A stretch of 49,578 nt of DNA from Candidatus Shapirobacteria bacterium. GTDB taxonomy: Bacteria > Patescibacteriota > Microgenomatia > UBA12405. The stretch lies in the NCBI GenBank assembly GCA_041665485.1, contig JBAYIT010000003.1, positions 133,146-182,723 of the forward strand. Reading direction: 5' to 3'. Under the pieces are notes generated by a model. That model was not told the origin of the DNA and did not search any database. It was given only the letters and a program-made list of their open reading frames with translations. Shown here in pieces: positions 1 through 28,207 of this stretch (position 1 is the first letter of the stretch; each line of letters begins with the position of its first letter). The translations under genes and the position numbers were made by a program.

Positions 1-405
1 AAAAAATAGTTGTCTGTCTGCTTCTATCGTTTGTTTTATTGCTTCAATACATAAGTCGGCAATTATTAAGTTGTGTTTTATAAATTTCTCCGATCTTTGT
101 TTATCTTTATATATTCGCTTTATTAAGGTCGGACTTAGTTGGTTTTGTTTGTTTAAATAACGGATACTTTTTTTATCCAAGCAGTAGATTGCCGGTTTAG
201 TATTGTCTGGATATGATTTGCTGTATTTTTTATAAATAATATTGTTGTCAGATAAGTTTTTTAACCATTTATTGGTTTGGCCAGGATGTTTGTGTTTAAG
301 AATGGTTTGTATTTGAATTCGAGTTAGATAACGGAAACGGAAAAGATGTAGGAGTATAGATAGTTGTTGATTGGTAATAGATAGAAGAAGTGTAGTGGTG
401 GTCAT
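1..405 (-). CDS. replication-relaxation (Replic_Relax-like) family protein, C-terminus cut by window edge
   Basis: Absent from the ORF track because it runs off the left edge. ATG at 405..403, open in frame to position 1. The translation MTTTTLLLSITNQQLSILLHLFRFRYLTRIQIQTILKHKHPGQTNKWLKNL...IYCLDKKSIRYL fits the N-terminal winged-helix pattern of plasmid/ICE replication-relaxation proteins. Confidence 0.5.
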   Translation of the reverse strand, partial: MTTTTLLLSITNQQLSILLHLFRFRYLTRIQIQTILKHKHPGQTNKWLKNLSDNNIIYKKYSKSYPDNTKPAIYCLDKKSIRYLNKQNQLSPTLIKRIYKDKQRSEKFIKHNLIIADLCIEAIKQTIEADRQLFF

Positions 406-546: not shown

Positions 547-3072
547 TTAATGGAGTTTAGTAACTACCTTTGTCGTCTTTTTGTTGGTAGGTTGTGTTAC
601 CAGTCCCTTTGGGCGAGCGTACGGCTTGGCATAATTCATTCTCGAGGCTTCAATCACTTGCCTTACCCTATCGTGGTCAGATGAGAGGCCAAGAGGTACG
701 GTTTCACCTGAAAATGGTTCCTCGGAAGTCAAGGCGTTGATTTTAATATAAAAATGAAAAGAGGGGAGACTGGCAATTTCACCCTGAGTTACGTAAGGGT
801 AAAGTTGCGGCAACAATAACCGCTCATCATCAGGACTAGCTGTTCGAAAACATATCACTGTTCCCGTGTTGGCTAACGTAACATTGACCAAAGACTTATC
901 TTCTAGTTGCGATGTTGTCTGATGAGCCAAAATGGCATTTAGTTTATATTTCCGAGCCTCAGATAAAATTTGGGCAAACGATGGTGTGGCAAAGTTTTGA
1001 AATTCATCTACGTAAAGATAAAAATCTTTTCTCTCCTCAACATTGACTCTGGCACGCTTTAGCGTCGCTAACTGAATTTTAGTTAGAAGCAATATACCAA
1101 ACAGTTCTGATGTGTCTTCACCCAGTTTTCCCTTCGATAGATTAGCTATAAGTATCTTGCTGGAGTCCATAATATCGTCAAAATTAATTAAAGATTTAGG
1201 CTGTTCTAAAATTCTTTTAGCCGTTGGGGAAAATAAAAACCGGCCAATTTTGTTGGTGATGGGAGAAATCATTTGGACTTTTTGAAAATCACCCGCCTTA
1301 CCAAATTCATATTTCCAAAAGTCATTTAGGTTCTCATCGTCTAAAAAGTTAGTCACACTTTTTTGATATTGAGTATTAGACAAAAGTTTATGAACCGTAA
1401 ATAGTGTTGAATTGGGGATTGTGAAGGCTGTATATATAGTATTCCGCAAAATATACTCCATTCGTGGCCCTGAGAACTTATCCGGGAACAATTTATGAAA
1501 CAGAGAGATGATACTTTCAGTAATAAATTCTTTCTCTCTTAAACTGTCATCCTCAGACAAATTAGGGGTCAGTTCAAGTAAATTTACAGCTATCGGATTG
1601 GCAATATCGTCAGGATTAAAATAAATTACATCATTAATTCTTTCTGGTGGAATAATTCCCAATATTGTTTCTGCTAAATCTCCGTGCGGATCTAGTATTG
1701 CCATTCCCTTACCATGATCTATATCCTGTTTAATCATCGACAATAACAAGGTCGATTTACCAGTTCCAGTTGCTCCGATAATATACATATGGCGTCGTCT
1801 CTCATCCAAACTCAATCCAATTTTAGTAGTCGTCCCACCATAACTATTTTTACCAAAATAAACATCCAAAACTTTTGTTTGTTTTAGAGACAAAGGCGCT
1901 GGTAGTTCCTTACTTTGTTGTTTGACTAAATCCTCAGTTTTAGTCGTGGCAGTATATGGTAAGTGATAAATATCAGCAATTTCAGTCACCGACAAATATG
2001 GATTATTCAATAATCCATGAAGACGATTTTTAAATAAAAACAGGTCAAGCCGTTTTATTATCGGCATATTTATCTGTCTCTTTTTTATTAATGCCTGGTA
2101 ACTTGAATTTGAAAAAGAAGCCATAGATGTAACCATTCCTTTTGTCCGTAAATTCCTTTTCGACCCATTCGGACTGGTTACTAACAGCCTAATTGTCGTC
2201 TTAAAAAGTTGCTGGTCTAGTTTTCTTTTGACTTGCGCCTGAAGTTCTTGTTCATATGCATTATCAACCTTCTTTTGCCTTCCTCCTATTAGAGAGGAAA
2301 TAAAAGGACCCTCTTTACCTTCAGTAAAAACAAAAACAAGCACCCCAACTGGAAACATCAAAATATTAACCAAGATAGTAAATATCTGTTTACCAATATT
2401 TGTAGTTTTTAAGTAATTTAAATTAAAATAAAGTTCTTTATTATTGTAAATATAATTTGTTACAGTTTTTATATCTTTAATAGAAGATTTTTCTAAGGGT
2501 GTGGTAATTACCTGAAATGAAACCAGCTCATTTAGCTCAAGTTTTGTCATCGCCCCGGTTATATAAGCAATCGGATCATTATCTTCCAGTGATATCTGGC
2601 TTTTTAAAGGCAAGGCAAAATGGTTAGTCAATGCAAACTCAACAATTGAAGTAGTTTTTGTATTTTGTTCAGGCTTAACATAATCATCAACTTCTTTAAT
2701 AGTCATTCCCGATAAATAAGCCAACAGTTCGTGTTTAACAATCGAGGCATCATCTTCGTTAACCCGAACATAATATCGAATTCCTTCAACTCTTGATGAC
2801 GCGATTTCAAAAGAATAGTTCTTTGTTTCACCAACAATTCTTTGAAAAAACGATCGTTGCTTCGACAATCCGTGAATCAAAGAAAATAGTTGTTGAGTGC
2901 TACACGGTATCTGTTCAGTTTTCCTCAATGGGACAATCTCCAATATTATCTGTTTCTCGTGTAATTTTCTCCAAATTAAAACTAATTTAACCGCAATTTT
3001 AGTCACTAAAACTAAGCCAAGCATAAAAGCCATCACCATTACTGTTTTATTGACACTATCTAATAGGTTCAT
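547..3072 (-). CDS. membrane-anchored VirD4/TraD/TraG-like (type IV coupling protein-like) P-loop ATPase
   Basis: 841-aa ORF. N-terminal TM helices (VMVMAFMLGLVLVTKIAVKLVLIW, IFTILVNILMFPVGVLVFVF). Walker A in YIIGATGTGKSTLL, Walker B-like YLYVDEFQNF. Overall layout matches T4SS DNA-binding/coupling ATPases. Confidence 0.7.
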   Translation of the reverse strand: MNLLDSVNKTVMVMAFMLGLVLVTKIAVKLVLIWRKLHEKQIILEIVPLRKTEQIPCSTQQLFSLIHGLSKQRSFFQRIVGETKNYSFEIASSRVEGIRYYVRVNEDDASIVKHELLAYLSGMTIKEVDDYVKPEQNTKTTSIVEFALTNHFALPLKSQISLEDNDPIAYITGAMTKLELNELVSFQVITTPLEKSSIKDIKTVTNYIYNNKELYFNLNYLKTTNIGKQIFTILVNILMFPVGVLVFVFTEGKEGPFISSLIGGRQKKVDNAYEQELQAQVKRKLDQQLFKTTIRLLVTSPNGSKRNLRTKGMVTSMASFSNSSYQALIKKRQINMPIIKRLDLFLFKNRLHGLLNNPYLSVTEIADIYHLPYTATTKTEDLVKQQSKELPAPLSLKQTKVLDVYFGKNSYGGTTTKIGLSLDERRRHMYIIGATGTGKSTLLLSMIKQDIDHGKGMAILDPHGDLAETILGIIPPERINDVIYFNPDDIANPIAVNLLELTPNLSEDDSLREKEFITESIISLFHKLFPDKFSGPRMEYILRNTIYTAFTIPNSTLFTVHKLLSNTQYQKSVTNFLDDENLNDFWKYEFGKAGDFQKVQMISPITNKIGRFLFSPTAKRILEQPKSLINFDDIMDSSKILIANLSKGKLGEDTSELFGILLLTKIQLATLKRARVNVEERKDFYLYVDEFQNFATPSFAQILSEARKYKLNAILAHQTTSQLEDKSLVNVTLANTGTVICFRTASPDDERLLLPQLYPYVTQGEIASLPSFHFYIKINALTSEEPFSGETVPLGLSSDHDRVRQVIEASRMNYAKPYARPKGLVTQPTNKKTTKVVTKLH

Positions 3073-3145
3073 TTTTTAAAATAAGGCGGAAAGTAAGAAG
3101 TAAGTTAGTATATTACAAATATTTTTTATTAATAGCACCAAACTA

Positions 3146-3173
3146 TTGACCAAATTCCTACATTTGCTATACT
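3146..3173 (+). promoter_or_regulatory. candidate sigma70-type promoter for the small ORF and recombinase
   Basis: TTGACC (3146..3151), 16-nt spacer, TGcTATACT (extended -10, TATACT 3168..3173). Overlaps the palindrome CTATCC-ATATAC-GGATAG (3172..3189), a possible operator. Confidence 0.35.
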
Positions 3174-3202
3174 ATCCATATACGGATAGCTAGCATAATA
3201 GT

Positions 3203-3358
3203 ATGAAAACAAAACGAAAATATAAAAGTAGAAATATGACGGAAGCAACCAACATAACAATGGAGGACAGGCTAAGAATATTAGCCAACGTTATTGTCGA
3301 CAGAATTATGGAAGATCAGCAAGGGAAATTAACAAACCAAGGAGGGGATAATGGCTGA
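3203..3358 (+). CDS. small basic hypothetical protein (51 aa), possible recombinase accessory factor
   Basis: Below the ORF-track size cut-off. ATG at 3203, translation MKTKRKYKSRNMTEATNITMEDRLRILANVIVDRIMEDQQGKLTNQGGDNG. Its stop overlaps the recombinase start (ATGGCTGA, 8-nt overlap), suggesting translational coupling. No homology recognised. Confidence 0.3.
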   Translation: MKTKRKYKSRNMTEATNITMEDRLRILANVIVDRIMEDQQGKLTNQGGDNG

Positions 3359-5036
3359 ATTCAACATTGTTAGTGAAAATGCTGTCGTAGCCATTCGAGT
3401 TTCCTCAATTAAACAAGGACTTCAAGGGGATTCTCCAGAGGCTCAAAAAGAACAAATCGAACAATTTGCTAAAACCAGAAATATCACTATCAAAAAGTTT
3501 TTTATATTTATGGAATCTGCCTCCAAAGAAGAACAACCCGTCCAAGAGGCGATTGATTATTGTAAAAATCCAAATAACGGCATTCAATTGTTTATCATTA
3601 AGTCAATTGACCGGTTCACTAGGGGAGGTTCCTATTTGTACGATCATCTAAAAATGCAATTGACTAAAGAAAATGTAAAGTTAGTTGATATTTATGGGAT
3701 TATTGGTAGTCAAAAAGTCAACACTTTAGAACATCTTGGCTTTGAATATAACTGGAGTGTCTATAGCCCAACAAATAAAGCTGAAATTCTCGAAGCAGAG
3801 AGAGCTAAGGATGAAATGAGAGATATTATGTCTCGCATGATTGGAGCCGAAATCAGATACGTAAAATTAGGTTTTAGAGTTCGACGACCACCCTTTGGAT
3901 ACATTAATGAGAAGGTTGAGACATCGCATGGCAAAAGAGTTGTCCTCAAACCTCACCCCGAAGAATCGCAATGGATTCTTAAAATGTACGACCTAAGATT
4001 AAGAGGCACCATGACCGACGCCCAAATTATTGATGAACTTAATAAACTCGGATATCAATCTCGCAAACAATACATTAGAAACCCCAAGGACAGAACAAAA
4101 ATAATTGGCGAAAGGGGAGGAGGGCAATTGAATTTGAAGCAGTTTTTAAGATATATGGAAAATCCTATCTATGCCGGAATAAACATTGAAAAATGGACAA
4201 ACGGCCTACCTGTTAAAGCAAAATTTAACGGTATTGTTACCGTAAAACTATTTAACAAAGCCAATAACGATAAAGTAAAGATAGTTGAACACAATGGTGA
4301 GTTAAAAATGATAAAAAGGTTACCTCCAGAATATTTACTAAGGAAACAATCAAAAAGCCCTAGATTTCCTTATAAACAATTTATCCTCTGCCCGCATTGT
4401 CGAAAACCGCTTTATGGCAGTGCCTCAAGAGGAAAACTGGGCAAGCATTATCCGGCTTATCACTGTTATCGAGATAAGCACTATTTTCGGGTTGTTTCTT
4501 CAGAATTAGAAAATACGGTCAAATCTTTTGTTAAAAATTTAGATATCAACAAAGAATACGTTGAAGAGCTTAAAAAATATGTAATCGATATCTGGAACAA
4601 AAGACAAACAGAAGTTGTGACTGATAATGCCAAAATTGAAGACAAGGTCGCAGAGCTTAGAATTCAAGCCAGAGCCACTGCCGATAAAATCAAGTTTTTG
4701 AATTCGGAAGTTGCCATAAAATATCTTGAAGAAGACCTCGTTGGAATTGAAAAGCAGATTATCAATCTCCAGCAAGGCAAAGACGTGGAACCTCAAATCA
4801 ACCAAAATATGGAAGTTATTATGGAAAACGTTGGATATTTTTTGGAACACCTCGAAGAACTAATGGTAGGTTCCAAGAATCCGTTAAAACAGGCAGCCTA
4901 TTTTGGCCTCATTTTTGAACAAACACCGACCTATCAAGAACTGCTCTTTGGAACCCCCAAGTTACAACCGTATCTTACGCTAAAAGATCATTTTCAAAAC
5001 CTACCATTACCAATAGGTGACCCCACGGGGAATTGA
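3351..5036 (+). CDS. large serine recombinase (resolvase/invertase N-domain + recombinase domain + zinc ribbon + coiled coil)
   Basis: N-terminus VAIRVSSIKQGLQGDSPEAQ carries the catalytic Ser motif (cf. RVSTxxQ). Central domain FGYINEK...RLRGTMTDAQIIDELNKLGY. Cys/His cluster CPHCRKPLYGS...YHCYRDKHY. Strong SD AAGGAGGGG before the ATG. Confidence 0.85.
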   Translation: MAEFNIVSENAVVAIRVSSIKQGLQGDSPEAQKEQIEQFAKTRNITIKKFFIFMESASKEEQPVQEAIDYCKNPNNGIQLFIIKSIDRFTRGGSYLYDHLKMQLTKENVKLVDIYGIIGSQKVNTLEHLGFEYNWSVYSPTNKAEILEAERAKDEMRDIMSRMIGAEIRYVKLGFRVRRPPFGYINEKVETSHGKRVVLKPHPEESQWILKMYDLRLRGTMTDAQIIDELNKLGYQSRKQYIRNPKDRTKIIGERGGGQLNLKQFLRYMENPIYAGINIEKWTNGLPVKAKFNGIVTVKLFNKANNDKVKIVEHNGELKMIKRLPPEYLLRKQSKSPRFPYKQFILCPHCRKPLYGSASRGKLGKHYPAYHCYRDKHYFRVVSSELENTVKSFVKNLDINKEYVEELKKYVIDIWNKRQTEVVTDNAKIEDKVAELRIQARATADKIKFLNSEVAIKYLEEDLVGIEKQIINLQQGKDVEPQINQNMEVIMENVGYFLEHLEELMVGSKNPLKQAAYFGLIFEQTPTYQELLFGTPKLQPYLTLKDHFQNLPLPIGDPTGN

Positions 5037-5089
5037 ACCCCGGTTACCAGGATGAGAACCTGATGTCCTAGCCACTAGACGATGGGGCC
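5018..5089 (-). tRNA. tRNA-Glu (anticodon CUC)
   Basis: Hand-folded cloverleaf of GGCCCCATCGTCTAGTGGCTAGGACATCAGGTTCTCATCCTGGTAACCGGGGTTCAATTCCCCGTGGGGTCA. Acceptor GGCCCCA/TGGGGTC, D arm GTCT/GGAC, anticodon stem TCAGG/CCTGG with loop TTCTCAT, T arm CGGGG-TTCAATT-CCCCG, discriminator A. CC follows, but no full CCA is encoded. Confidence 0.85.
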
Positions 5090-20838: not shown

Positions 20839-21512
20839 TCTCTGTCGTCATACCCTGTTTTAATGAAGAAGAACGGATATTACCGGTTTTGAATTCTCTT
20901 AAACAATCAAAATCGTGTGGTGAAATTATCGTCGTCGACGATGGCTCCAATAAGACTACCAAAGATATTTTAATCGCCGTCAAAGGCATTAAACTAATTA
21001 CTCATCCTAAAAATCTTGGCAAAGCCCAAGCCTTAAAAACCGGCATTCTTCAAGCTAAATACGATGTCATCGTTTTTATCGATGCTGATTTAGTCAATCT
21101 TACCCCAGATCATATCAATGCCCTGATAGAACCAGTTATAAATTCCGATTGTGATCTAACCTTAAGTGATCGGCCCGAAGAATCGTTTTACACTGTTTTC
21201 TCTGGCTTTAATATTGCCTATACTGGCGAGCGTTGTGTTAGACGCCAACTCTTGCTTCAACATTTAGACATTTTCGATAATCCTGGTTACTTAATCGAAT
21301 CCTCTATGAACCGGATATTTTTTAAAAATTATCGGGTTAAAAAAGTACCATTTCCCGAAGTCGGCCAAATATCAAAAAGCAAAAAATATGGCATTGTCAA
21401 AGGTCTTTACTTGGACGCTAAAATGTTTTTTCAAATCATCCAATTTTCAGGTCTTAAAGAGCTTATTTTTCAACTATCTTTTGCCAAAAGGCTACCCGGT
21501 TATCCCCAATAG
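20826..21512 (+). CDS. glycosyltransferase family 2
   Basis: VSVVIPCFNEEERI, IIVVDDGSNKTT and FIDADL (DxD) motifs. Confidence 0.85.
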   Translation: MDKLVSVVIPCFNEEERILPVLNSLKQSKSCGEIIVVDDGSNKTTKDILIAVKGIKLITHPKNLGKAQALKTGILQAKYDVIVFIDADLVNLTPDHINALIEPVINSDCDLTLSDRPEESFYTVFSGFNIAYTGERCVRRQLLLQHLDIFDNPGYLIESSMNRIFFKNYRVKKVPFPEVGQISKSKKYGIVKGLYLDAKMFFQIIQFSGLKELIFQLSFAKRLPGYPQ

Positions 21513-23048
21513 CCCCTTCATCTTCTTCAATGCTTCGGCGTTTTTTCCGATTTCAAAATGCTTCCGAGCCGGCTCTAGTTTTTCAATTAACCAGTCAGAT
21601 AAGGCGTTTTTTAAATCCAGTGGAAATAATTTTTCGCTCTGGTAATCAGCCGTTAAGTCGGCCATGGTGTTGTAAACCACCTTACCTCCAAATCTTTCCG
21701 GCCGGTCAACCACAAAATTGCCAGTCTTCTCGCCCCAAAATATCAATGTCTCCACCCAATTTAGTAGTGGGTTAAACTCAACTTCTTTCGGTGGGCCGTA
21801 AGCTTTTTTAATTTTGTTCCTAATTTCGTCTGGAGTGTCGTGAATAAACACCGCGCTGTTCGGCTTCGACTTACTCATCTTCAATGATTCAGCGTCATTG
21901 TCGCCTGCCTGCGGGCCAGAAAGACCAGCAATTAAATTCTGGTGAATCGCCACCGGTGTTTGGTGTTTCCCAGGAATCTTTTTAATTGCCTCTCTGGCAA
22001 TCACATGAGCCTTTCTTTGGTCCATGCCAGCATGTGCCAAATTAATATCTAGGGTCACTATATCCGCCACCTGTAGTGGTGGGTAGAAGAGGGTGGCCAT
22101 ATTGACATCCGTGCCCTGCTTTTTACCCATAATCGAAATCGATCTTAAGTCACGAGCTAAAGTTACTTGTTTGCCCACTTCCATAAATGTTTGCCAATGA
22201 TCCGGCCGGCTTTCATACAAATCTTTTCCCGAAATAAATTCGACCTGATCACCCTCAACTCCGAAGCACTTAAGTGAAGCAATTAGTCCTTCTTTAAAAT
22301 AACTCTCCGATGCCCAGCGAATATCCTCCCACTTTCCGCCTAATTTATTATTCAAAAAAGTATGGAAATCAGCCAAAAATATTCTGCATTTTGCCCCGGC
22401 CTGCAAAAAGTCGGCAATTTTTCCCATCGACAATAATCCCGTTCCCAAATGCACTAACCCCGAAATCTCAAAGCCAATGTAGTGCGACAGGGGGGTGCCA
22501 GACTCTATTAGCGCCCTCAAGTCCTCCTCCGTCAGCACCTCCTGGCAGTTTCTAGTTATCAATCTAATTTTTTCTTCTGTGTCCATGTTCTTTTCTTCTG
22601 CAATTGATACTACCTTGCATTTTAGATGATCTAAAACCACCTCCAGTTTAACATTAATCCCGTGTTTAGTGTCTCCTGCTCCCATACTCCAAATTTTTTG
22701 GCTCATCAGTTTCTTATCCACTAATGTTTTTATCTCCAAAACCAATGGGCAAACTCCGCCCGCTACCAACTCCAGTTTAACCAATTCATCGCCAGTCGCC
22801 ACTCTCCATTTACCAATTAAAGCCGACAACTTTTTATCATCAACTCTGTCGCTCCCACCAACAACTACAGCTGTAAAACCTGCATCGGTTTTCACTACTA
22901 ACGTTTTGATTGCATTTTTTGGATCATAATTTTTCCCCATTGACGTGTCGCTGGTTCTGGCCGAAATGGCCGTATCACCAAACTCCACCACTTCAAAATC
23001 AATCTTCTGCTTTTTTAACCGATCACATATTTCCATAAAATCTTTCAT
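21492..23048 (-). CDS. tyrS: YbaK/ProX-like aminoacyl-tRNA deacylase domain fused to archaeal/eukaryal-type tyrosyl-tRNA synthetase
   Basis: Residues ~1-150: LKKQKIDFEVV..., AIKTLVVK, VAGGVCPL (YbaK/tRNA_edit pattern). Residues ~160-518 align along their length with M. jannaschii-type TyrRS: HYIGFEISGLVHLG, LADFHTFLN, YPPLQVADI, AGMDQRKAHVIARE, KMSKSKP, EIRNKIKKAY, RPERFGG, LFPLDLKNA..LIEKLEPARKHF. Confidence 0.85.
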   Translation of the reverse strand: MKDFMEICDRLKKQKIDFEVVEFGDTAISARTSDTSMGKNYDPKNAIKTLVVKTDAGFTAVVVGGSDRVDDKKLSALIGKWRVATGDELVKLELVAGGVCPLVLEIKTLVDKKLMSQKIWSMGAGDTKHGINVKLEVVLDHLKCKVVSIAEEKNMDTEEKIRLITRNCQEVLTEEDLRALIESGTPLSHYIGFEISGLVHLGTGLLSMGKIADFLQAGAKCRIFLADFHTFLNNKLGGKWEDIRWASESYFKEGLIASLKCFGVEGDQVEFISGKDLYESRPDHWQTFMEVGKQVTLARDLRSISIMGKKQGTDVNMATLFYPPLQVADIVTLDINLAHAGMDQRKAHVIAREAIKKIPGKHQTPVAIHQNLIAGLSGPQAGDNDAESLKMSKSKPNSAVFIHDTPDEIRNKIKKAYGPPKEVEFNPLLNWVETLIFWGEKTGNFVVDRPERFGGKVVYNTMADLTADYQSEKLFPLDLKNALSDWLIEKLEPARKHFEIGKNAEALKKMKGLLGITG

Positions 23049-23051
23049 AGT

Positions 23052-23732
23052 TTAGTTTAATAAATTTTTAACTGCCGTGTTTGCCAAGATATCCATGGTG
23101 TCTAAAAATAAAATCTTACGATTGAATTCTTGCCATACCTCGCTCAATAACTGCAGTTCGCTGCACCCCAAAATGCAAGTTTCAATGCCACTATCAATAA
23201 AATTATTTAACACTTTTTCTAACATATTTTTGTCAGATTTGGTTGCCACCTTGCCCTTGGCTAACCTGTCAAGCATTTGGCTAATTTTTATTTGCTTATT
23301 TTTATCAGGAACAGTTAATTCAAATTTATTTGACACAAATAATTTATTCTTAACGGCAAAAGTTGTTGCTAGTAACCCAACCTTTTCTAATTTTATTTGC
23401 TTTTTTGTCTCTTCAATTGCGCTCATAACTGGAATATCAACATTTTTTTGAACCTCATCAATAAAAACATGCACCGAATTACAGGCAATAATTAAAAAAT
23501 CTGCTCCGGCTAATTCCAATCTCTTGGCGGCTTTAGCCATTAGAGTTGGGAAGTTGCCGGAATCATTATCGGTAATTAGTCTGGTTTCGGCCATTAAATT
23601 TATTGGTAAACTGGCCACTAAAATATCCGGCCTGGTTTTTTGGCCAGACGCTACAAATTTATTAATGATTTTGGTAACTAATTGGTTGGTGGCTTCCGGG
23701 CCCATCCCCCCAATTATTCCTAAGGTTTTCAT
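23052..23732 (-). CDS. aspartate/glutamate racemase family protein
   Basis: GIIGGMGPEAT, the two catalytic-Cys motifs IIACNSVH and ILGCSEL, and a size (~226 aa) typical of aspartate racemases. Confidence 0.8.
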   Translation of the reverse strand: MKTLGIIGGMGPEATNQLVTKIINKFVASGQKTRPDILVASLPINLMAETRLITDNDSGNFPTLMAKAAKRLELAGADFLIIACNSVHVFIDEVQKNVDIPVMSAIEETKKQIKLEKVGLLATTFAVKNKLFVSNKFELTVPDKNKQIKISQMLDRLAKGKVATKSDKNMLEKVLNNFIDSGIETCILGCSELQLLSEVWQEFNRKILFLDTMDILANTAVKNLLN

Positions 23733-23735
23733 AAG

Positions 23736-23807
23736 TCCAACGGGCAGGAGTTGAACCTGCTTTAAACGGTTTTACAGACCGTTGCCTAACCGTCCGGCTC
23801 CCGTTGG
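23736..23807 (-). tRNA. tRNA-Tyr (anticodon GUA), class I (short variable arm) with a C1:G72 first pair
   Basis: Hand fold of CCAACGGGAGCCGGACGGTTAGGCAACGGTCTGTAAAACCGTTTAAAGCAGGTTCAACTCCTGCCCGTTGGA. Acceptor CCAACGG/CCGTTGG, D stem GCC/GGC, anticodon stem ACGGT/ACCGT with loop CTGTAAA, 5-nt variable loop TTAAA, T arm GCAGG-TTCAACT-CCTGC, discriminator A. No CCA is encoded. Confidence 0.85.
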
Positions 23808-23811
23808 TTGC

Positions 23812-23835
23812 GGCACGGCGGTTCCCCGCCATGCC
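23812..23835 (-). other. stable 10-bp hairpin with GGAA tetraloop immediately 5' of tRNA-Tyr
   Basis: Minus strand GGCATGGCGG-GGAA-CCGCCGTGCC. No U-tract follows. It lies between the orf96 stop and the tRNA 5' end, so it may be a processing or stability element. Confidence 0.5.
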
Positions 23836-23847
23836 TAGATATAGTCT

Positions 23848-24138
23848 TTATCCGCCATTGTTTTGAAAATCTTTAACTCTGTTAAACGCGTCTCTAGCTA
23901 TCATCCCAAGATCACTTCTAAATCCGTGATCAAAGGTTCCAACTAGTCGGCCTACTGCAAGTTTAGCCATTGCCTCCACCGATCTTCCATCTGGGCAATC
24001 AAGCCATTCGAGTGCAACGCTTTGTCCCACAATAGTCGCAACTCGCATTGCTCTTTGTCGTCGAGTTAAGCCAGTTTGGATCTCCCAATTTGGTAGAGAC
24101 GGATTAATACCGTCAAAACTAATTTCTCTATTTTTCAT
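23848..24138 (-). CDS. hypothetical protein (96 aa), first ORF downstream of the T-box leader
   Basis: Strong SD (AAGGGAGGTGATAAAAAATG). No recognisable motif. Confidence 0.5.
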   Translation of the reverse strand: MKNREISFDGINPSLPNWEIQTGLTRRQRAMRVATIVGQSVALEWLDCPDGRSVEAMAKLAVGRLVGTFDHGFRSDLGMIARDAFNRVKDFQNNGG

Positions 24139-24204: not shown

Positions 24205-24265
24205 ACACCAAAAAGCCCCCACACCAGTCCAAACCATTAATATGGTCGGGACTAGGGTGAGGGCT
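24205..24265 (-). terminator. intrinsic terminator of the T-box leader
   Basis: AGCCCUCACCCUAGUCC (24265..24249) pairs with GGACUGGUGUGGGGGCU (24230..24214): 16 of 17 positions paired, 2 of them G.U. It is followed by UUUUU (24214..24210). Confidence 0.8.
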
Positions 24266-24440
24266 TGACCAGTTTGACTGGTTTTCTCACGGTACCACCT
24301 AGTTTCCCCCGCAGGGGCGGGGCTTATTATCGAGTATTTGCTAAAAGCAGTGTTACCCTATCTCTATTCCGGGAGATCCCGCTCCGATTTTGTCGAAGTG
24401 CTCCGGGGGTGTATTACGTCCCCATCCGCGTTCCAAGTTA
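24205..24440 (-). promoter_or_regulatory. T-box riboswitch leader (transcription attenuation type), probable tyrosine (UAC) specifier
   Basis: T-box consensus AAACUAGGUGGUACCGUGAG at 24305..24286. Antiterminator: A1 ACUAGG/CCUAGU, bulge UGGUACC, A2 GUGAG/CUCAC. A mutually exclusive terminator is present. Stem III is CCCCGC-CCCU-GCGGGG (24322..24306). The first hairpin GGGG-ACGUAAUACA-CCCC presents UAC+A (UAC at 24413..24411). Confidence 0.85.
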
Positions 24441-24445
24441 AAAGT

Positions 24446-24475
24446 ATCATACCACCAAAAAATCTTACTTGTCAA
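24446..24475 (-). promoter_or_regulatory. strong sigma70-type promoter for the T-box operon
   Basis: -35 TTGACA (24475..24470), 18-nt spacer, extended -10 TGgTATGAT (TATGAT 24451..24446). Confidence 0.7.
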
Positions 24476-25718: not shown

Positions 25719-25867
25719 CTGTGACGCAAAAATTGAATCCAAAGACTAGCCGACTTTCGGCCAACCAATCCTTGGATAAAGGCGTCATTAAATTTATTCG
25801 CCTCTCCTGCTAATTCGGGGCCGGCTTCTCAAACCACCCCGAAAAACTCAACCGAGAGGTTTTTTTT
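25719..25867 (+). promoter_or_regulatory. structured ~150-nt leader or small RNA ending in a terminator-like hairpin with a T8 tract, upstream of greA
   Basis: Long hairpin GACGC...CCAAAG..GCCG-ACTTT-CGGC..CCTTGG...GCGTC. Alternative pairing AGGCG/CGCCT. Then CCTCTC...TTCGGGG-16nt-CCCCGAA...GAGAGG followed by TTTTTTTT (25860..25867). Confidence 0.45.
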
Positions 25868-25886
25868 GGTTAATAATAAACAAAAC

Positions 25887-26345
25887 ATGAACAAAACAAT
25901 GCTCACCCAGGCCGGATTCGTCCAGTTAGACAGTCAACTTTCTGACTTGAACGAAAAAAAAGAGCGTTTAATCACTCAAATTGAGGAAGTCGCCTTGCCA
26001 GACGAGTCAGGTGAGGATAGTCTTTGCTCCCAGCTTAAAGAGGAGCTTGAAGTTGTTAATGACAAAATCACCAAGCTCGAAGAGGCTCTTGAAAATGCTG
26101 AAATTGTCACCAATGGCGGTTCTAAAACCCTAATTCAAGTCGGTTCTAAAGTTAAGGTTAAACTTTCTGGTAATTCCACCAAGGAATTCGCCATTGTTTC
26201 TCATCTTGAATCCGACCCGTCCCTCAATAAGATTTCCGACCAGTCGCCTCTAGGCCAGGCTCTTTTGGGTAAAAAAATTAATGATGAGTTTGAAATTGTT
26301 GCCCCGGTTGGCAAAATCGCCTACAAAATCATAGCTATTTCCTGA
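25887..26345 (+). CDS. greA: transcription elongation factor GreA
   Basis: LTQAGFVQLDSQL..., a coiled-coil N-domain and a C-terminal FKBP-like domain (GSKVKVKL...SPLGQALLGKKINDEFEI). Start moved from the track's TTG at 25866 to ATG 25887, downstream of the T-tract. Confidence 0.85.
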   Translation: MNKTMLTQAGFVQLDSQLSDLNEKKERLITQIEEVALPDESGEDSLCSQLKEELEVVNDKITKLEEALENAEIVTNGGSKTLIQVGSKVKVKLSGNSTKEFAIVSHLESDPSLNKISDQSPLGQALLGKKINDEFEIVAPVGKIAYKIIAIS

Positions 26346-26365: not shown

Positions 26366-28207
26366 ATGTCTGATTTAGTCAAACAACGCCAGGATAAGTT
26401 GGTAGAGCTCAAACAACGTGGCTTCGATCCCTATCCCCAGCCTAATCTCGAAGTAAAACAAAGTTGTGCTCTGGCTTGTCAGTCCGAGGGTCAATCGGTT
26501 ACAGTTGCTGGTCGTCTCATGTCCCTTCGTGGTCACGGCAAAATCATGTTTGCCGATCTTCATGATCTTTCTGGCAAAATCCAGCTTTTTTTTGAAAAAA
26601 ACACTCTAGGCGAGTCGATGTCTGTTGCTAAACTATTTGATCTGGGTGACATTGTCTCGGCTACCGGCACCGTTTTCAAAACTAACGCCGGTGAAATAAC
26701 TATCCGTGTTAGTCAGTTCCAAATCCTGGCCAAAAATCTGCGTCCTTTACCAGAAAAATGGCATGGCCTTACCGACACTGAAGAACGCTATCGTCAACGC
26801 TATGTTGACTTAATTGTTAATCCCGAAAGTAGAGAAGTATTTTTAACTCGCACCAAAATTCTCTCGGCTATGCGTAAGTTCCTTGACGATCACGGTTTTA
26901 TTGAAGTTGAAACACCGATTCTCCAGCCGGTTTACGGTGGTGCTTCGGCCAAGCCCTTTATTACCCATCATAACGAGTTAGAGCAAGACATGTATTTACG
27001 CATCAGCGACGAACTCTATCTTAAACGTCTAATCGTCGGCGGTCTGGAGAAAGTTTACGAAGTCTCCCGCGATTTTCGCAATGAAAGTGTTTCCCGCTTT
27101 CACAATCCCGAGTTTACTCAAATCGAATTTTACTGGGCTTATGTTGACTATGATGTTTTAATGCGCTTTACCGAAGAACTAGTCACCAATATTGCCAAAA
27201 TGGTTAAGGGTAGCCTCAAATTTAGTTTTAATGGTCAGGAACTCGATTTTACCCCACCCTTTAAACGGCTTACTTTCCGCGACGCCATTCTCGAAAAAAC
27301 CGGCATTGATATCGATCAAATTCACTCTGAAGATGAATTTTTTAAAGCTTTGGAAATTGGTAATTTGAAATTGGAAATTGCCGACGCAGTCGGCTTAGGT
27401 GCATTATTTGATGCTCTATATAAGGAAACTGTCCGTCCCTTTTTAATCGGTCCTGTTTTTATTACCGATTATCCTGCCGAAATGATTGCTCTGGCCAAAA
27501 GAAAAGCCGACAATCCCAAAAAGATCGCCTCCTTTCAACTTCTTGCTTGCGGCACTGAACTGCTTAAAGCTTACAACGAGTTAAACGATCCCAAAGATCA
27601 ATCCGATCGCTGGCTTGAAGAGGCCAAATTGGAAGCCAGAGGCGCCCAAAACGCCATGCAAATGGACACCGACTACATTCGAGCTTTAGAGTATGGCATG
27701 CCTCCCACTGCCGGCTGGGGCATGGGTATTGACCGTTTTACCCAGTTCCTAACCGATACTCCCACCATCAAAGACGTTATTCTTTTTCCTTCTCTTCGGT
27801 CAGAAAAAGAAACCACTTCTGAAAATGATTTAATTGGTCTTAATAGTCAAAAAGTTGTCATTGGTCAGGTAATTGCAATCCGTCCCCACCCTAATGCCGA
27901 CAAATTAAAAATCTATGATGTCAAAATCTCTTCCGACCTAAACTTGGCCATTATTAGTGGTTGCCAAAATCTCAAAGACAACGACATTGTCGCTGTCGCC
28001 ATGCCCGGTGCCATTGTTTTTGCTCCTGAAAATAAAACCCAAAAAATCAAACCCACCAAAATGCGTGGGGTCGATTCTCCGGCCATGATGTGTTCGCCCT
28101 TAGAGCTGGGCGTCAATCCCAATCACGAAACCATCTTCGTCCTCCCGGCCGATTTATCCGCACACCTAGGCGAACCAGTATCTAAATACTATTCTGTCAC
28201 CAAGTAA
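26366..28207 (+). CDS. lysS: class II lysyl-tRNA synthetase with appended C-terminal Trbp111/EMAP-like tRNA-binding domain
   Basis: OB anticodon-binding domain. Class II motifs (YLRISDELYLKRL, RDFRNE, GMGIDRF). The extra ~120 aa VIGQVIAIRPHPNADKLKIYDV...KMRGVDSPAMMCS match the tRNA_bind (CsaA/Trbp111) pattern. Confidence 0.9.
   Translation: MSDLVKQRQDKLVELKQRGFDPYPQPNLEVKQSCALACQSEGQSVTVAGRLMSLRGHGKIMFADLHDLSGKIQLFFEKNTLGESMSVAKLFDLGDIVSATGTVFKTNAGEITIRVSQFQILAKNLRPLPEKWHGLTDTEERYRQRYVDLIVNPESREVFLTRTKILSAMRKFLDDHGFIEVETPILQPVYGGASAKPFITHHNELEQDMYLRISDELYLKRLIVGGLEKVYEVSRDFRNESVSRFHNPEFTQIEFYWAYVDYDVLMRFTEELVTNIAKMVKGSLKFSFNGQELDFTPPFKRLTFRDAILEKTGIDIDQIHSEDEFFKALEIGNLKLEIADAVGLGALFDALYKETVRPFLIGPVFITDYPAEMIALAKRKADNPKKIASFQLLACGTELLKAYNELNDPKDQSDRWLEEAKLEARGAQNAMQMDTDYIRALEYGMPPTAGWGMGIDRFTQFLTDTPTIKDVILFPSLRSEKETTSENDLIGLNSQKVVIGQVIAIRPHPNADKLKIYDVKISSDLNLAIISGCQNLKDNDIVAVAMPGAIVFAPENKTQKIKPTKMRGVDSPAMMCSPLELGVNPNHETIFVLPADLSAHLGEPVSKYYSVTK

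Follow-up and report, generated by a model that had tools for sequence, protein, structure and literature searches.

The subject of this analysis is a stretch of 49,578 nucleotides from a contig of Candidatus Shapirobacteria (JBAYIT010000003.1; hereafter the window), whose minus strand carries what is, with good confidence, a tyrosine-charging operon under the control of a T-box riboswitch. In this operon an archaeal-type tyrosyl-tRNA synthetase (TyrRS) that bears an editing-type N-terminal domain is combined with a tRNA-Tyr of archaeal identity, and with an amino-acid racemase. Past the terminator of the T-box leader, the minus strand reads in the order ORF96, a GC-rich hairpin, the tRNA-Tyr gene, the racemase gene and the TyrRS open reading frame (ORF). 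The tRNA and the synthetase stand about 0.7 kb apart in one co-directional gene string, which bears out the physical linkage put forward in an original prediction made from the letters of the DNA. Related loci that were fetched for comparison are designated below by L-numbers and related proteins by P-numbers.

The synthetase is encoded by an ORF of 518 amino acids taken from the ORF list (21492..23048, minus strand), which starts 3 nt past the stop codon of the racemase gene. Residues 155-518 (21492..22586, minus strand) constitute an archaeal-type TyrRS body, identified by Pfam PF00579 (1.3e-36), by matches in the PDB and by NF006330, the NCBIfam equivalog model of archaeal-type TyrRS (PRK08560), which is passed with 376 bits for a cut-off of 220. 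The best PDB match, extending over the full body, is the TyrRS of Pyrococcus horikoshii (2cyc; 3.7e-105, 356 bits); the enzyme of M. jannaschii (1j1u) is matched at 1.8e-44 and the bacterial enzyme of T. thermophilus (1h3e) at 1e-6, so that a bacterial TyrRS reaches 31 bits where that of P. horikoshii reaches 356. TIGR00234, the model of bacterial tyrS, fails with 101.1 bits (cut-off 113.8) and the trpS models remain far under their cut-offs. The ORF contains the motifs HYIGFEISGLVHLG, FLADFHTFLNNK, GMDQRKAHVIARE, KMSKSK, RPERFGG and FPLDLKNA, keeps the class I signatures (HIGH-type HLGT and KMSKS) and aligns with archaeal enzymes in the GMDQRK and RS segments. Pfam recognizes in it PF04073 and PF00579 and no other domain; no S4-like C-terminal domain was found, the protein ending after the anticodon-binding helices. 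Judging from the type of the enzyme, tyrosylation is predicted to depend on C1:G72.

The original prediction had described this enzyme as Methanocaldococcus-type and as unlike bacterial TyrS/TyrZ. The model scores agree with the latter statement, and all of the quoted motifs are present in a protein of archaeal type, but the Pyrococcus-type enzyme is the closer relative (2cyc as compared with 1j1u); similarly, the catalytic body that it had recognized in the ORF corresponds to residues 155-518, residues 1-154 being a separate YbaK-like domain. The phylogeny it had called for was computed by neighbour joining only, with P. horikoshii (sequence from the PDB alignment) and M. jannaschii as references, and places the Shapirobacteria TyrRS clade as sister to P. 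horikoshii and WWE3-type enzymes. Fused and unfused TyrRS are interleaved in this crude tree, with fused enzymes on the deepest Shapirobacteria branches, which tentatively suggests that the fusion of the YbaK-like domain to TyrRS is old and has been lost repeatedly.

The partner of the synthetase is a tRNA-Tyr(GUA) of class I at 23736..23807 (minus strand), on which ARAGORN and Rfam RF00005 (54.7 bits, gathering score 29) agree and whose CCA end is not encoded. In the Rfam alignment, the acceptor stem CCAACGG/CCGUUGG yields a C1:G72 first pair, the discriminator base is A73, the variable loop comprises 5 nt (UUAAA) and the anticodon loop reads CUGUAAA; the cloverleaf is also the minimum-free-energy fold of the tRNA sequence taken alone. 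The anticodon loop, with its A37, has a bacterial look. The tRNA thus combines C1:G72, A73 and G34-U35-A36 and is devoid of a long variable arm, i.e., it presents the archaeal/eukaryal identity set that had been read from its sequence and that matches the identity table of a 2023 review, in which bacterial tRNATyr has G1:C72 and a long arm, its archaeal and eukaryal counterparts have C1:G72, and A73 is universal (PMC9976931). It is the single tRNA-Tyr of the window, as ARAGORN and Rfam report; the other window tRNA is a tRNA-Glu (5018..5089).

In substance, an archaeal-type tyrosine pair in candidate-phyla-radiation (CPR) bacteria is already published. Archaeal tRNATyr identity in CPR bacteria was described with Shapirobacteria named, a group that ranks among the main bacterial ones of the TyrRS tree of that study; several independent lateral transfers were inferred, and many CPR tRNA-Tyr were found to keep a V-arm and, on that account, to derive probably from bacterial tRNA-Tyr (Mukai, Reynolds, Crnkovic and Soll, 2017, Life 7:8; PMC5370408).

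Two subtypes of tRNA-Tyr can be distinguished among the loci. The first (window, L002, L017, L037 and L038) combines a D-loop containing the usual GG with a T-loop beginning with UUC, and G8 and G14 replace the near-universal U8 and A14 in the window, L002 and L017. The second (L003, L020, L022, L028, L029, L033 and L039) has U8/A14, a D-loop devoid of GG such as AAUAGCU, and a UGCAAGU T-loop with G55. These differences look like covariation of the elbow and the core tertiary pairs. The elbow of a tRNA is the part on which the Stem I platform of a T-box docks.

T-boxes are a bacterial device, and on comparative sequence grounds a divergent but canonical transcriptional Tyr T-box lineage is plainly present upstream of the gene string, at 24205..24436 (minus strand), where it was recognized with the full RF00230 model, with nhmmer and by folding. 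All of its parts lie on the minus strand. The Stem I specifier loop (...AAUAC-A...) contains the codon UAC at 24413..24411, followed by an A at 24410; the T-box sequence AGGUGGUACCGUGAG includes the bulge UGGU at 24297..24294, complementary to A73-C-C-A; and a terminator hairpin with a U-run occupies about 24210..24267 (-39.2 kcal/mol, z -6.6). Folding of the antiterminator reproduces the canonical 7-nt bulge, UGGUACC, and the 3' half of the antiterminator is alternatively held in the terminator hairpin, so the two structures are mutually exclusive. Against RF00230, the window leader covers the model end to end with 20.3 bits (E 0.05), and the homologous leaders of relatives reach 34-48 bits (E down to 1.4e-7). 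A profile of the relatives' leaders found by nhmmer a single match in the window (1.5e-53), compensatory changes occur in 21 of the 60 predicted pairs in an alignment of six leaders, and the T-box features are conserved in at least 12 related leaders. At gathering thresholds, Rfam reports only the two tRNAs in the window; matches to miRNA families obtained at permissive Rfam thresholds (mir-2329 and others) were rejected as artefacts of the terminator hairpin.

Ahead of the leader, a sigma-70-like sequence (TTGACA-18-TATGAT with an extended -10 TG; 24446..24475, minus strand) agrees with the consensus at 11 of 12 positions, and a TTGACA...TATAAT-like arrangement also precedes the homologous leaders of L002, L003, L015, L017 and L020; from the consensus match, it is a putative promoter. 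The claim that tRNA and TyrRS lie under one riboswitch is therefore upheld by a Tyr T-box with a UAC specifier, a UGGU bulge and a terminator upstream of their co-directional string. Several relatives have fewer than 10 nt between the U-run of the terminator and the start of the cognate tRNA gene, and the switch would therefore control the very tRNA that it senses. No T-box in CPR/Patescibacteria was found reported in the searchable literature, which includes few subscription journals and makes this weak evidence.

The most distinctive part of the synthetase is its N-terminal domain. Residues 1-154 of the ORF (22587..23048, minus strand) form an editing-type domain with the YbaK/ProX fold (INS superfamily), as indicated by Pfam PF04073 (55.8 bits, cut-off 25.5, 6e-15), by an AlphaFold model with a pLDDT of 92.6 and by Foldseek, which aligned that model with TM scores of 0.78-0.85 to YbaK of H. 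influenzae (1dbx), APE2540 of A. pernix (1wdv) and ProX of T. thermophilus (2cx5/2z0k). Its identity to solved members of the superfamily amounts to 18-25%, and the YbaK_EbsC equivalog TIGR00011 is not reached (36.5 bits, cut-off 153.25); by these comparisons the domain belongs to a separate branch of the superfamily, other than YbaK proper, the Cys-tRNAPro deacylase. In the window protein and ten other fusions, K48 of the KTL motif and the G97-x-V-C-P101 loop are invariant, in proteins that share just 44-79% identity, and K48 aligns with the KTL-motif lysine of YbaK, the INS domain of ProRS and APE2540. Compared to L020, the domain shows a dN of 0.12 for a dS of 0.63, a sign of purifying selection, and it is therefore translated and constrained. 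The public gene call of the window TyrRS (P0003, 364 aa) begins at M155 and omits the domain altogether.

A profile search of 1.84 billion representative proteins revealed a small family (9 representatives at less than 1e-30, 65 at less than 1e-10), which includes free-standing proteins of about 155 aa and further fusions between tRNA_edit and a class Ic synthetase (PF00579, Trp/Tyr). One member of 825 aa (P0122) joins tRNA_edit, a PheRS-type B3/4 editing fold and TyrRS, and the same triple architecture is found in L033 (1005..2333), downstream of a tRNA-Tyr and a racemase gene. As a separate gene, the domain overlaps the start of TyrRS in L027 and stands directly upstream of it in L037. In seven other loci (L034, L035, L038, L042, L043, L045 and L046), the TyrRS body to which a homologue of about 48% identity is fused is eukaryote-like; this body is 33-35% identical to that of the window and has Leishmania and Plasmodium TyrRS among its best PDB matches. 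The eukaryote-like fusions of L038, L043 and L046 are preceded by a tRNA-Tyr and an aminotransferase gene, and in two of these loci, L038 and L046, a T-box leader was recognized as well; no upstream tRNA was seen in the contigs of L034, L035, L042 and L045. This distribution indicates that the synthetase body has probably been swapped behind a conserved N-domain, like the B2-TyrRS swap of Mukai et al. (2017).

Five further loci (L024-L026, L030 and L032) hold a racemase gene followed by an overlapping gene for the YbaK-like protein, with no TyrRS nearby. Around these pairs, genes for a relaxase, a TraG/TrwB-like coupling protein and pilins of a type IV secretion system are observed, and L024 and L032 additionally have genes for a Trp repressor, for an EamA-type transporter and for a second racemase. 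The racemase/YbaK-like pair may travel on mobile, conjugative-looking elements.

The gene that separates tRNA-Tyr from TyrRS in the window was identified as an Asp/Glu-type, pyridoxal phosphate-independent amino-acid racemase of 226 aa (23052..23732, minus strand). It matches PF01177 (1.7e-28) and passes TIGR00035 (140.7 bits, cut-off 93.1), its best PDB match is the aspartate racemase of P. horikoshii (1jfl, 2.9e-30), and its translation contains both catalytic cysteine motifs, ACNS and GCSE. A racemase gene occupies the same position in L020/L021, L028 and L033. In the window, 3 nt separate tRNA position 73 from the ATG of the racemase (23729..23736), and a start codon 2-3 nt past A73 recurs in 9 loci (window, L002, L003, L020, L028, L033, L038, L043 and L046), where the junction GGA-CU(U)-AUG, devoid of a Shine-Dalgarno sequence, precedes a racemase, an aminotransferase or a protein of about 364-389 aa of unknown nature. 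This arrangement suggests that 3' processing of the tRNA may create a leaderless mRNA.

Between the T-box terminator and the tRNA, the small, lineage-specific ORF96 (96 aa; 23848..24138, minus strand) follows a strong Shine-Dalgarno sequence, GGGAGGUG. It has no match in Pfam or NCBIfam and no homologue among the fetched loci; ORF110, scanned against Pfam only, likewise gave no Pfam match and no homologue among those loci. In L033, the corresponding position (66..315) is taken by an unrelated ORF of about 55 aa, which is also led by a Shine-Dalgarno sequence. A GC-rich hairpin without a U-run (23812..23835, minus strand; -22.3 kcal/mol, z -4.7) ends 4 nt upstream of the 5' end of the tRNA, and L033 has a similar hairpin with the same ...GCCGCAA|CCAACGG junction; it presumably serves processing or stability.

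The operon is one version of a recurrent module composed of a Tyr-specific T-box, a tRNA-Tyr, one amino-acid enzyme, a YbaK-like domain (fused or encoded separately) and TyrRS. The nearest relatives, P0001 (83% identical; L020/L021) and L028, have the same order without ORF96, the tRNA being followed by CU and the ATG of the racemase. The enzyme slot is filled by a racemase in the window, L020/21, L028 and L033, and a racemase gene also stands directly upstream of a YbaK-like ORF in L036, a truncated contig of 1 kb. A class I/II aminotransferase takes the slot in L027, L038, L043 and L046 and is found upstream of a YbaK-like ORF in L047, whose contig ends inside that ORF. An M20 peptidase, with or without a 350-aa protein of unknown nature, takes it in L002, L003, L015, L016, L017 and L029; in L002, L003 and L015 TyrRS is unfused and the YbaK-like gene is absent. 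The tRNA slot varies as well, among loci whose YbaK-like/archaeal-type TyrRS is of the same kind. L027, from WWE3, has a class II tRNA(GUA) with C1:G72 and an encoded CCA (2817..2902); L022/L044 have a class II tRNA(GUA) with G1:C72 and A73 (2982..3065), which in L022 is called by ARAGORN alone and goes unreported by Rfam at E<1e-3; and in L039 (57..221) a class I copy with C1:G72 stands in tandem with a class II copy that has G1:C72 and discriminator C. The tRNA of L002, for its part, was found by Rfam and missed by ARAGORN. The class II tRNAs of L022/L044, L039 and L027 may be intermediates of the identity switch.

How the two partners came together bears directly on the original prediction, which had them co-inherited or co-transferred as a matched pair. 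Their import from an archaeon (or from a eukaryote or virus) as a linked cassette that was inherited together ever since would account for archaeal features in both partners, for their spacing of 0.7 kb on one strand and for the class I C1:G72 tRNAs ahead of TyrRS in many related loci, and Mukai et al. (2017; PMC5370408) admit an archaeal origin of CPR tRNA-Tyr genes in some cases. However, this part of the prediction is not supported, as no tRNA-Tyr lies within 4 kb of TyrRS in 13 of the 15 species-representative Shapirobacteria loci (the representative-genome scan gave unfused TyrRS loci only, the fused ones coming from exact-protein look-ups and a metagenome scan), the genes between tRNA and TyrRS vary by locus, sister loci (L027, L022/L044 and L039) hold tRNAs of other types in the slot, and the TyrRS body has been exchanged between two clades within an unchanged tRNA/T-box frame. 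Moreover, the linkage runs through a T-box operon of bacterial nature, and the CUGUAAA anticodon loop with A37 is bacterial-like. Joint import as a cassette is thus unlikely and most likely did not take place; the more economical reading is that the enzyme was acquired laterally and that its partner tRNA was remodelled or chosen within the bacterial lineage, as Mukai et al. proposed. Somewhat less probable still is that the operon is an accessory, stress-induced second system similar to tyrZ of Bacillus or TrpRS-A of Beckwithbacteria, with a canonical bacterial pair elsewhere doing the housekeeping. T-box control and variable accessory genes do resemble auxiliary synthetase operons, class II G1:C72 tRNA(GUA) genes exist in the clade (L022/L044 and L039), and dual TrpRS systems occur in one CPR genome (Mukai et al., 2017; PMC5370408), but every Shapirobacteria representative found has an archaeal-type TyrRS, usually T-box-free and in conserved housekeeping synteny, the named close homologues are all annotated plainly as the tyrosine--tRNA ligase of their genome, and the class II tRNA of L022 lies inside an archaeal-type TyrRS operon instead of beside a bacterial tyrS. 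Finally, CPR and DPANN co-occur and their bins are often cross-contaminated (Mukai et al., 2017; PMC5370408), and the label is Methanoperedens for one relative and Gammaproteobacteria for others, so archaeal (DPANN) DNA might have formed a chimera with a bacterial contig or been mis-binned with it. The likelihood of such an artefact is negligible: a sortase, a GreA-like ORF, a lysyl-tRNA synthetase (LysRS), a GT2 glycosyltransferase, UvrC/A/B and SecA flank the operon on both sides on one contig, identical synteny is seen in many independent assemblies from separate studies, and the operon is controlled by a bacterial T-box.

Regarding the N-domain, its most likely role is that of an active deacylase in the proofreading of tRNA-Tyr, as its conserved residues suggest, with D-Tyr or a tyrosine analogue as candidate substrates. 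TyrRS is classically a synthetase without an editing domain; it discriminates poorly against D-Tyr, and mischarged D-Tyr is removed by DTD. D-Tyr is the most attractive candidate, to be held with low confidence and by analogy, because of this poor discrimination and of the repeated coupling of the N-domain to a racemase. A rather improbable alternative, albeit a more probable one than those above, is that the N-domain is a non-hydrolytic module that binds tRNA or stabilizes the dimer, like B2/OB-fold fusions, and that the racemase is an unrelated passenger. Synthetases often gain RNA-binding appendages, among them the B2-TyrRS fusions of CPR bacteria (Mukai et al., 2017; PMC5370408), the N-domain is missing from many close relatives, which function all the same, and several of its structural neighbours in the PDB are annotated as oligonucleotide-binding proteins. 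Set against this are the residues of YbaK/INS catalysis and substrate binding (the KTL lysine and the G-x-V-C-P loop), invariant at 44-79% identity, the recurrence of the overlapping racemase/YbaK-like pair without TyrRS (L024-26, L030 and L032) and the second editing-type domain, B3/4, of some relatives.

Several points nevertheless weigh against the operon as read here, for which the evidence is computational throughout and consists of sequence comparison and predicted structure. Many Shapirobacteria TyrRS are devoid of the N-domain, which is thus dispensable. The substrates of known YbaK/ProX enzymes are small L-aminoacyl groups (Cys, Ala, Ser, Thr and Abu), and no such enzyme is known to act on Tyr or on a D-aminoacyl-tRNA. 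The link to a racemase is limited to some loci, others having an aminotransferase or a peptidase, and these aminotransferase- and peptidase-linked loci would speak against the guess of D-Tyr. The RF00230 gathering score of 93 is reached neither by the window leader nor by those of its relatives. The terminator is separated from the tRNA by ORF96 and a strong hairpin, and an internal promoter could serve the tRNA or the racemase. Elsewhere in the genome there may be a further tRNA-Tyr, a tyrS of bacterial type or a dtd gene.

Taken as a T-box-controlled tyrosine-charging operon, the locus would operate as follows. A promoter of sigma-70 type would drive a transcriptional T-box leader, in which the specifier UAC would pair with the anticodon of tRNA-Tyr and the UGGU bulge with the uncharged 3' end, A73-C-C-A. 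Upon accumulation of uncharged tRNA-Tyr, the antiterminator would form and RNA polymerase would read through into ORF96, tRNA-Tyr, the racemase and TyrRS. The racemase here, and the aminotransferase or M20 peptidase in relatives, might contribute to the supply of L-tyrosine at times of scarcity. RNase P and a 3' endonuclease would excise the tRNA, presumably leaving an mRNA that starts with CU(U)AUG and is translated in a near-leaderless manner, and the N-domain would hydrolyse mis-acylated tRNA-Tyr.

The contig itself is bacterial DNA and archaeal contamination is excluded, because of the bacterial genes of the window, the recurrent synteny and the bacterial T-box that controls the operon. 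Its lineage, Candidatus Shapirobacteria (Microgenomates, CPR), is indicated by named homologues that are 73-80% identical over the TyrRS body and by synteny. The bacterial gene content includes UvrA, UvrB, UvrC, SecA, BipA, a sortase and a LysRS of class II that bears a tRNA_bind appendage, and the gene order sortase ... TyrRS, GT2, UvrC, UvrA is repeated across independent assemblies. The GreA-like ORF (25866..26345) matches GreA of L016. The LysRS (26366..28207, plus strand) has an additional C-terminal tRNA_bind domain (PF01588), as does that of L016; C-terminal appendages are known from a few Microgenomates LysRS (Mukai et al., 2017; PMC5370408). Elsewhere in the window, a TraG/TrwB-like coupling ATPase (547..3072, minus strand) and a large protein of serine-recombinase type (3351..5036, plus strand) both abut the tRNA-Glu gene (5018..5089, minus strand), and positions 547..5089 probably represent a mobile element integrated at a tRNA gene. 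Among the fetched loci, L003, L006-L009, L011 and L013 are clear Shapirobacteria contigs deposited under names such as "Candidatus Methanoperedens sp." or "uncultured Gammaproteobacteria bacterium"; such foreign names are likely to be binning or labelling errors in public metagenome-assembled genomes.

The locus adds a further example from a lineage already named in 2017. Beyond this, it is possible, though doubtful as a complete picture, that TyrRS recruited a YbaK/ProX-fold deacylase in a set of CPR lineages, sometimes together with a PheRS-type B3/4 domain, which would edit D-Tyr or an analogue in cis or in trans, and that the T-box also controls the tRNA that it senses, with a leaderless mRNA produced by tRNA processing; D-Tyr or an analogue is proposed here because the N-domain is genetically coupled to a racemase. 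If confirmed, a YbaK/ProX-like editing family would be tied to tRNA-Tyr and to a synthetase thought not to need editing, and such a proofreading domain would bear on the exclusion of D-tyrosine and tyrosine analogues from proteins. CPR T-boxes that sense a class I C1:G72 tRNA directly upstream of the gene of that same tRNA would, again if confirmed, constitute an unusual feedback design. The occurrence of class II G1:C72, class II C1:G72 and class I C1:G72 tRNAs in one operon slot of related genomes would make the path of the identity switch directly testable, and bacteria that naturally host TyrRS/tRNA pairs of archaeal type are of interest where orthogonal pairs are engineered to expand the genetic code.

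With respect to what has been described, the searchable literature contained nothing relevant on YbaK-TyrRS fusions, editing domains of CPR synthetases or DTD of Patescibacteria (subscription journals lie mostly outside it, and this is weak evidence), nor was a racemase between tRNA and TyrRS found described there. Apparently undescribed are the YbaK-like TyrRS domain with its gene partners, a CPR T-box directly before the tRNA that it senses, and start codons that abut a tRNA. The closest known systems are those of Mukai et al., with which the window shares an archaea/eukarya-type TyrRS and a C1:G72 tRNA-Tyr, found there in Microgenomates and other CPR phyla, as well as lateral acquisition of the enzyme, fusion of an N-terminal domain and swapping of the TyrRS body. 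On the other hand, they report B2 (OB-fold) fusions, whereas the window TyrRS has a YbaK/ProX-type domain; many of their CPR tRNA-Tyr keep the V-arm that is missing in the window; and a term search of their article found no mention, for TyrRS loci, of a T-box, of racemase, aminotransferase or peptidase partners or of tRNA-abutting ORF starts.

The N-domain has in common with YbaK, ProX, ProXp-ala and the INS domain of ProRS its fold, the KTL lysine, the glycine-rich loop and the existence of free-standing and fused forms, but differs from them by an invariant cysteine in the loop (GxVCP) and by being tied to TyrRS/tRNA-Tyr instead of ProRS. Its resemblance to DTD would be functional only, an analogy drawn from gene neighbourhood, as the folds are unrelated and no homology was detected. 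Like the tyrS-type T-boxes of Bacillus subtilis, the leader has UAC and a purine in the Stem I loop, UGGU in a 7-nt bulge that pairs with ACCA, mutually exclusive antiterminator and terminator structures, and a TyrRS gene under its control; unlike them, the leader family of the window is very divergent (20-48 versus 93 bits), belongs to CPR hosts and senses a class I C1:G72 tRNA. Lastly, the HIGH-type and KMSKS signatures, GMDQRK, the anticodon-binding D-L-K-N-A and the absence of S4 are shared with the TyrRS of P. horikoshii (2cyc), to which the window enzyme adds a YbaK-like N-domain of 154 residues, a bacterial host and T-box control.

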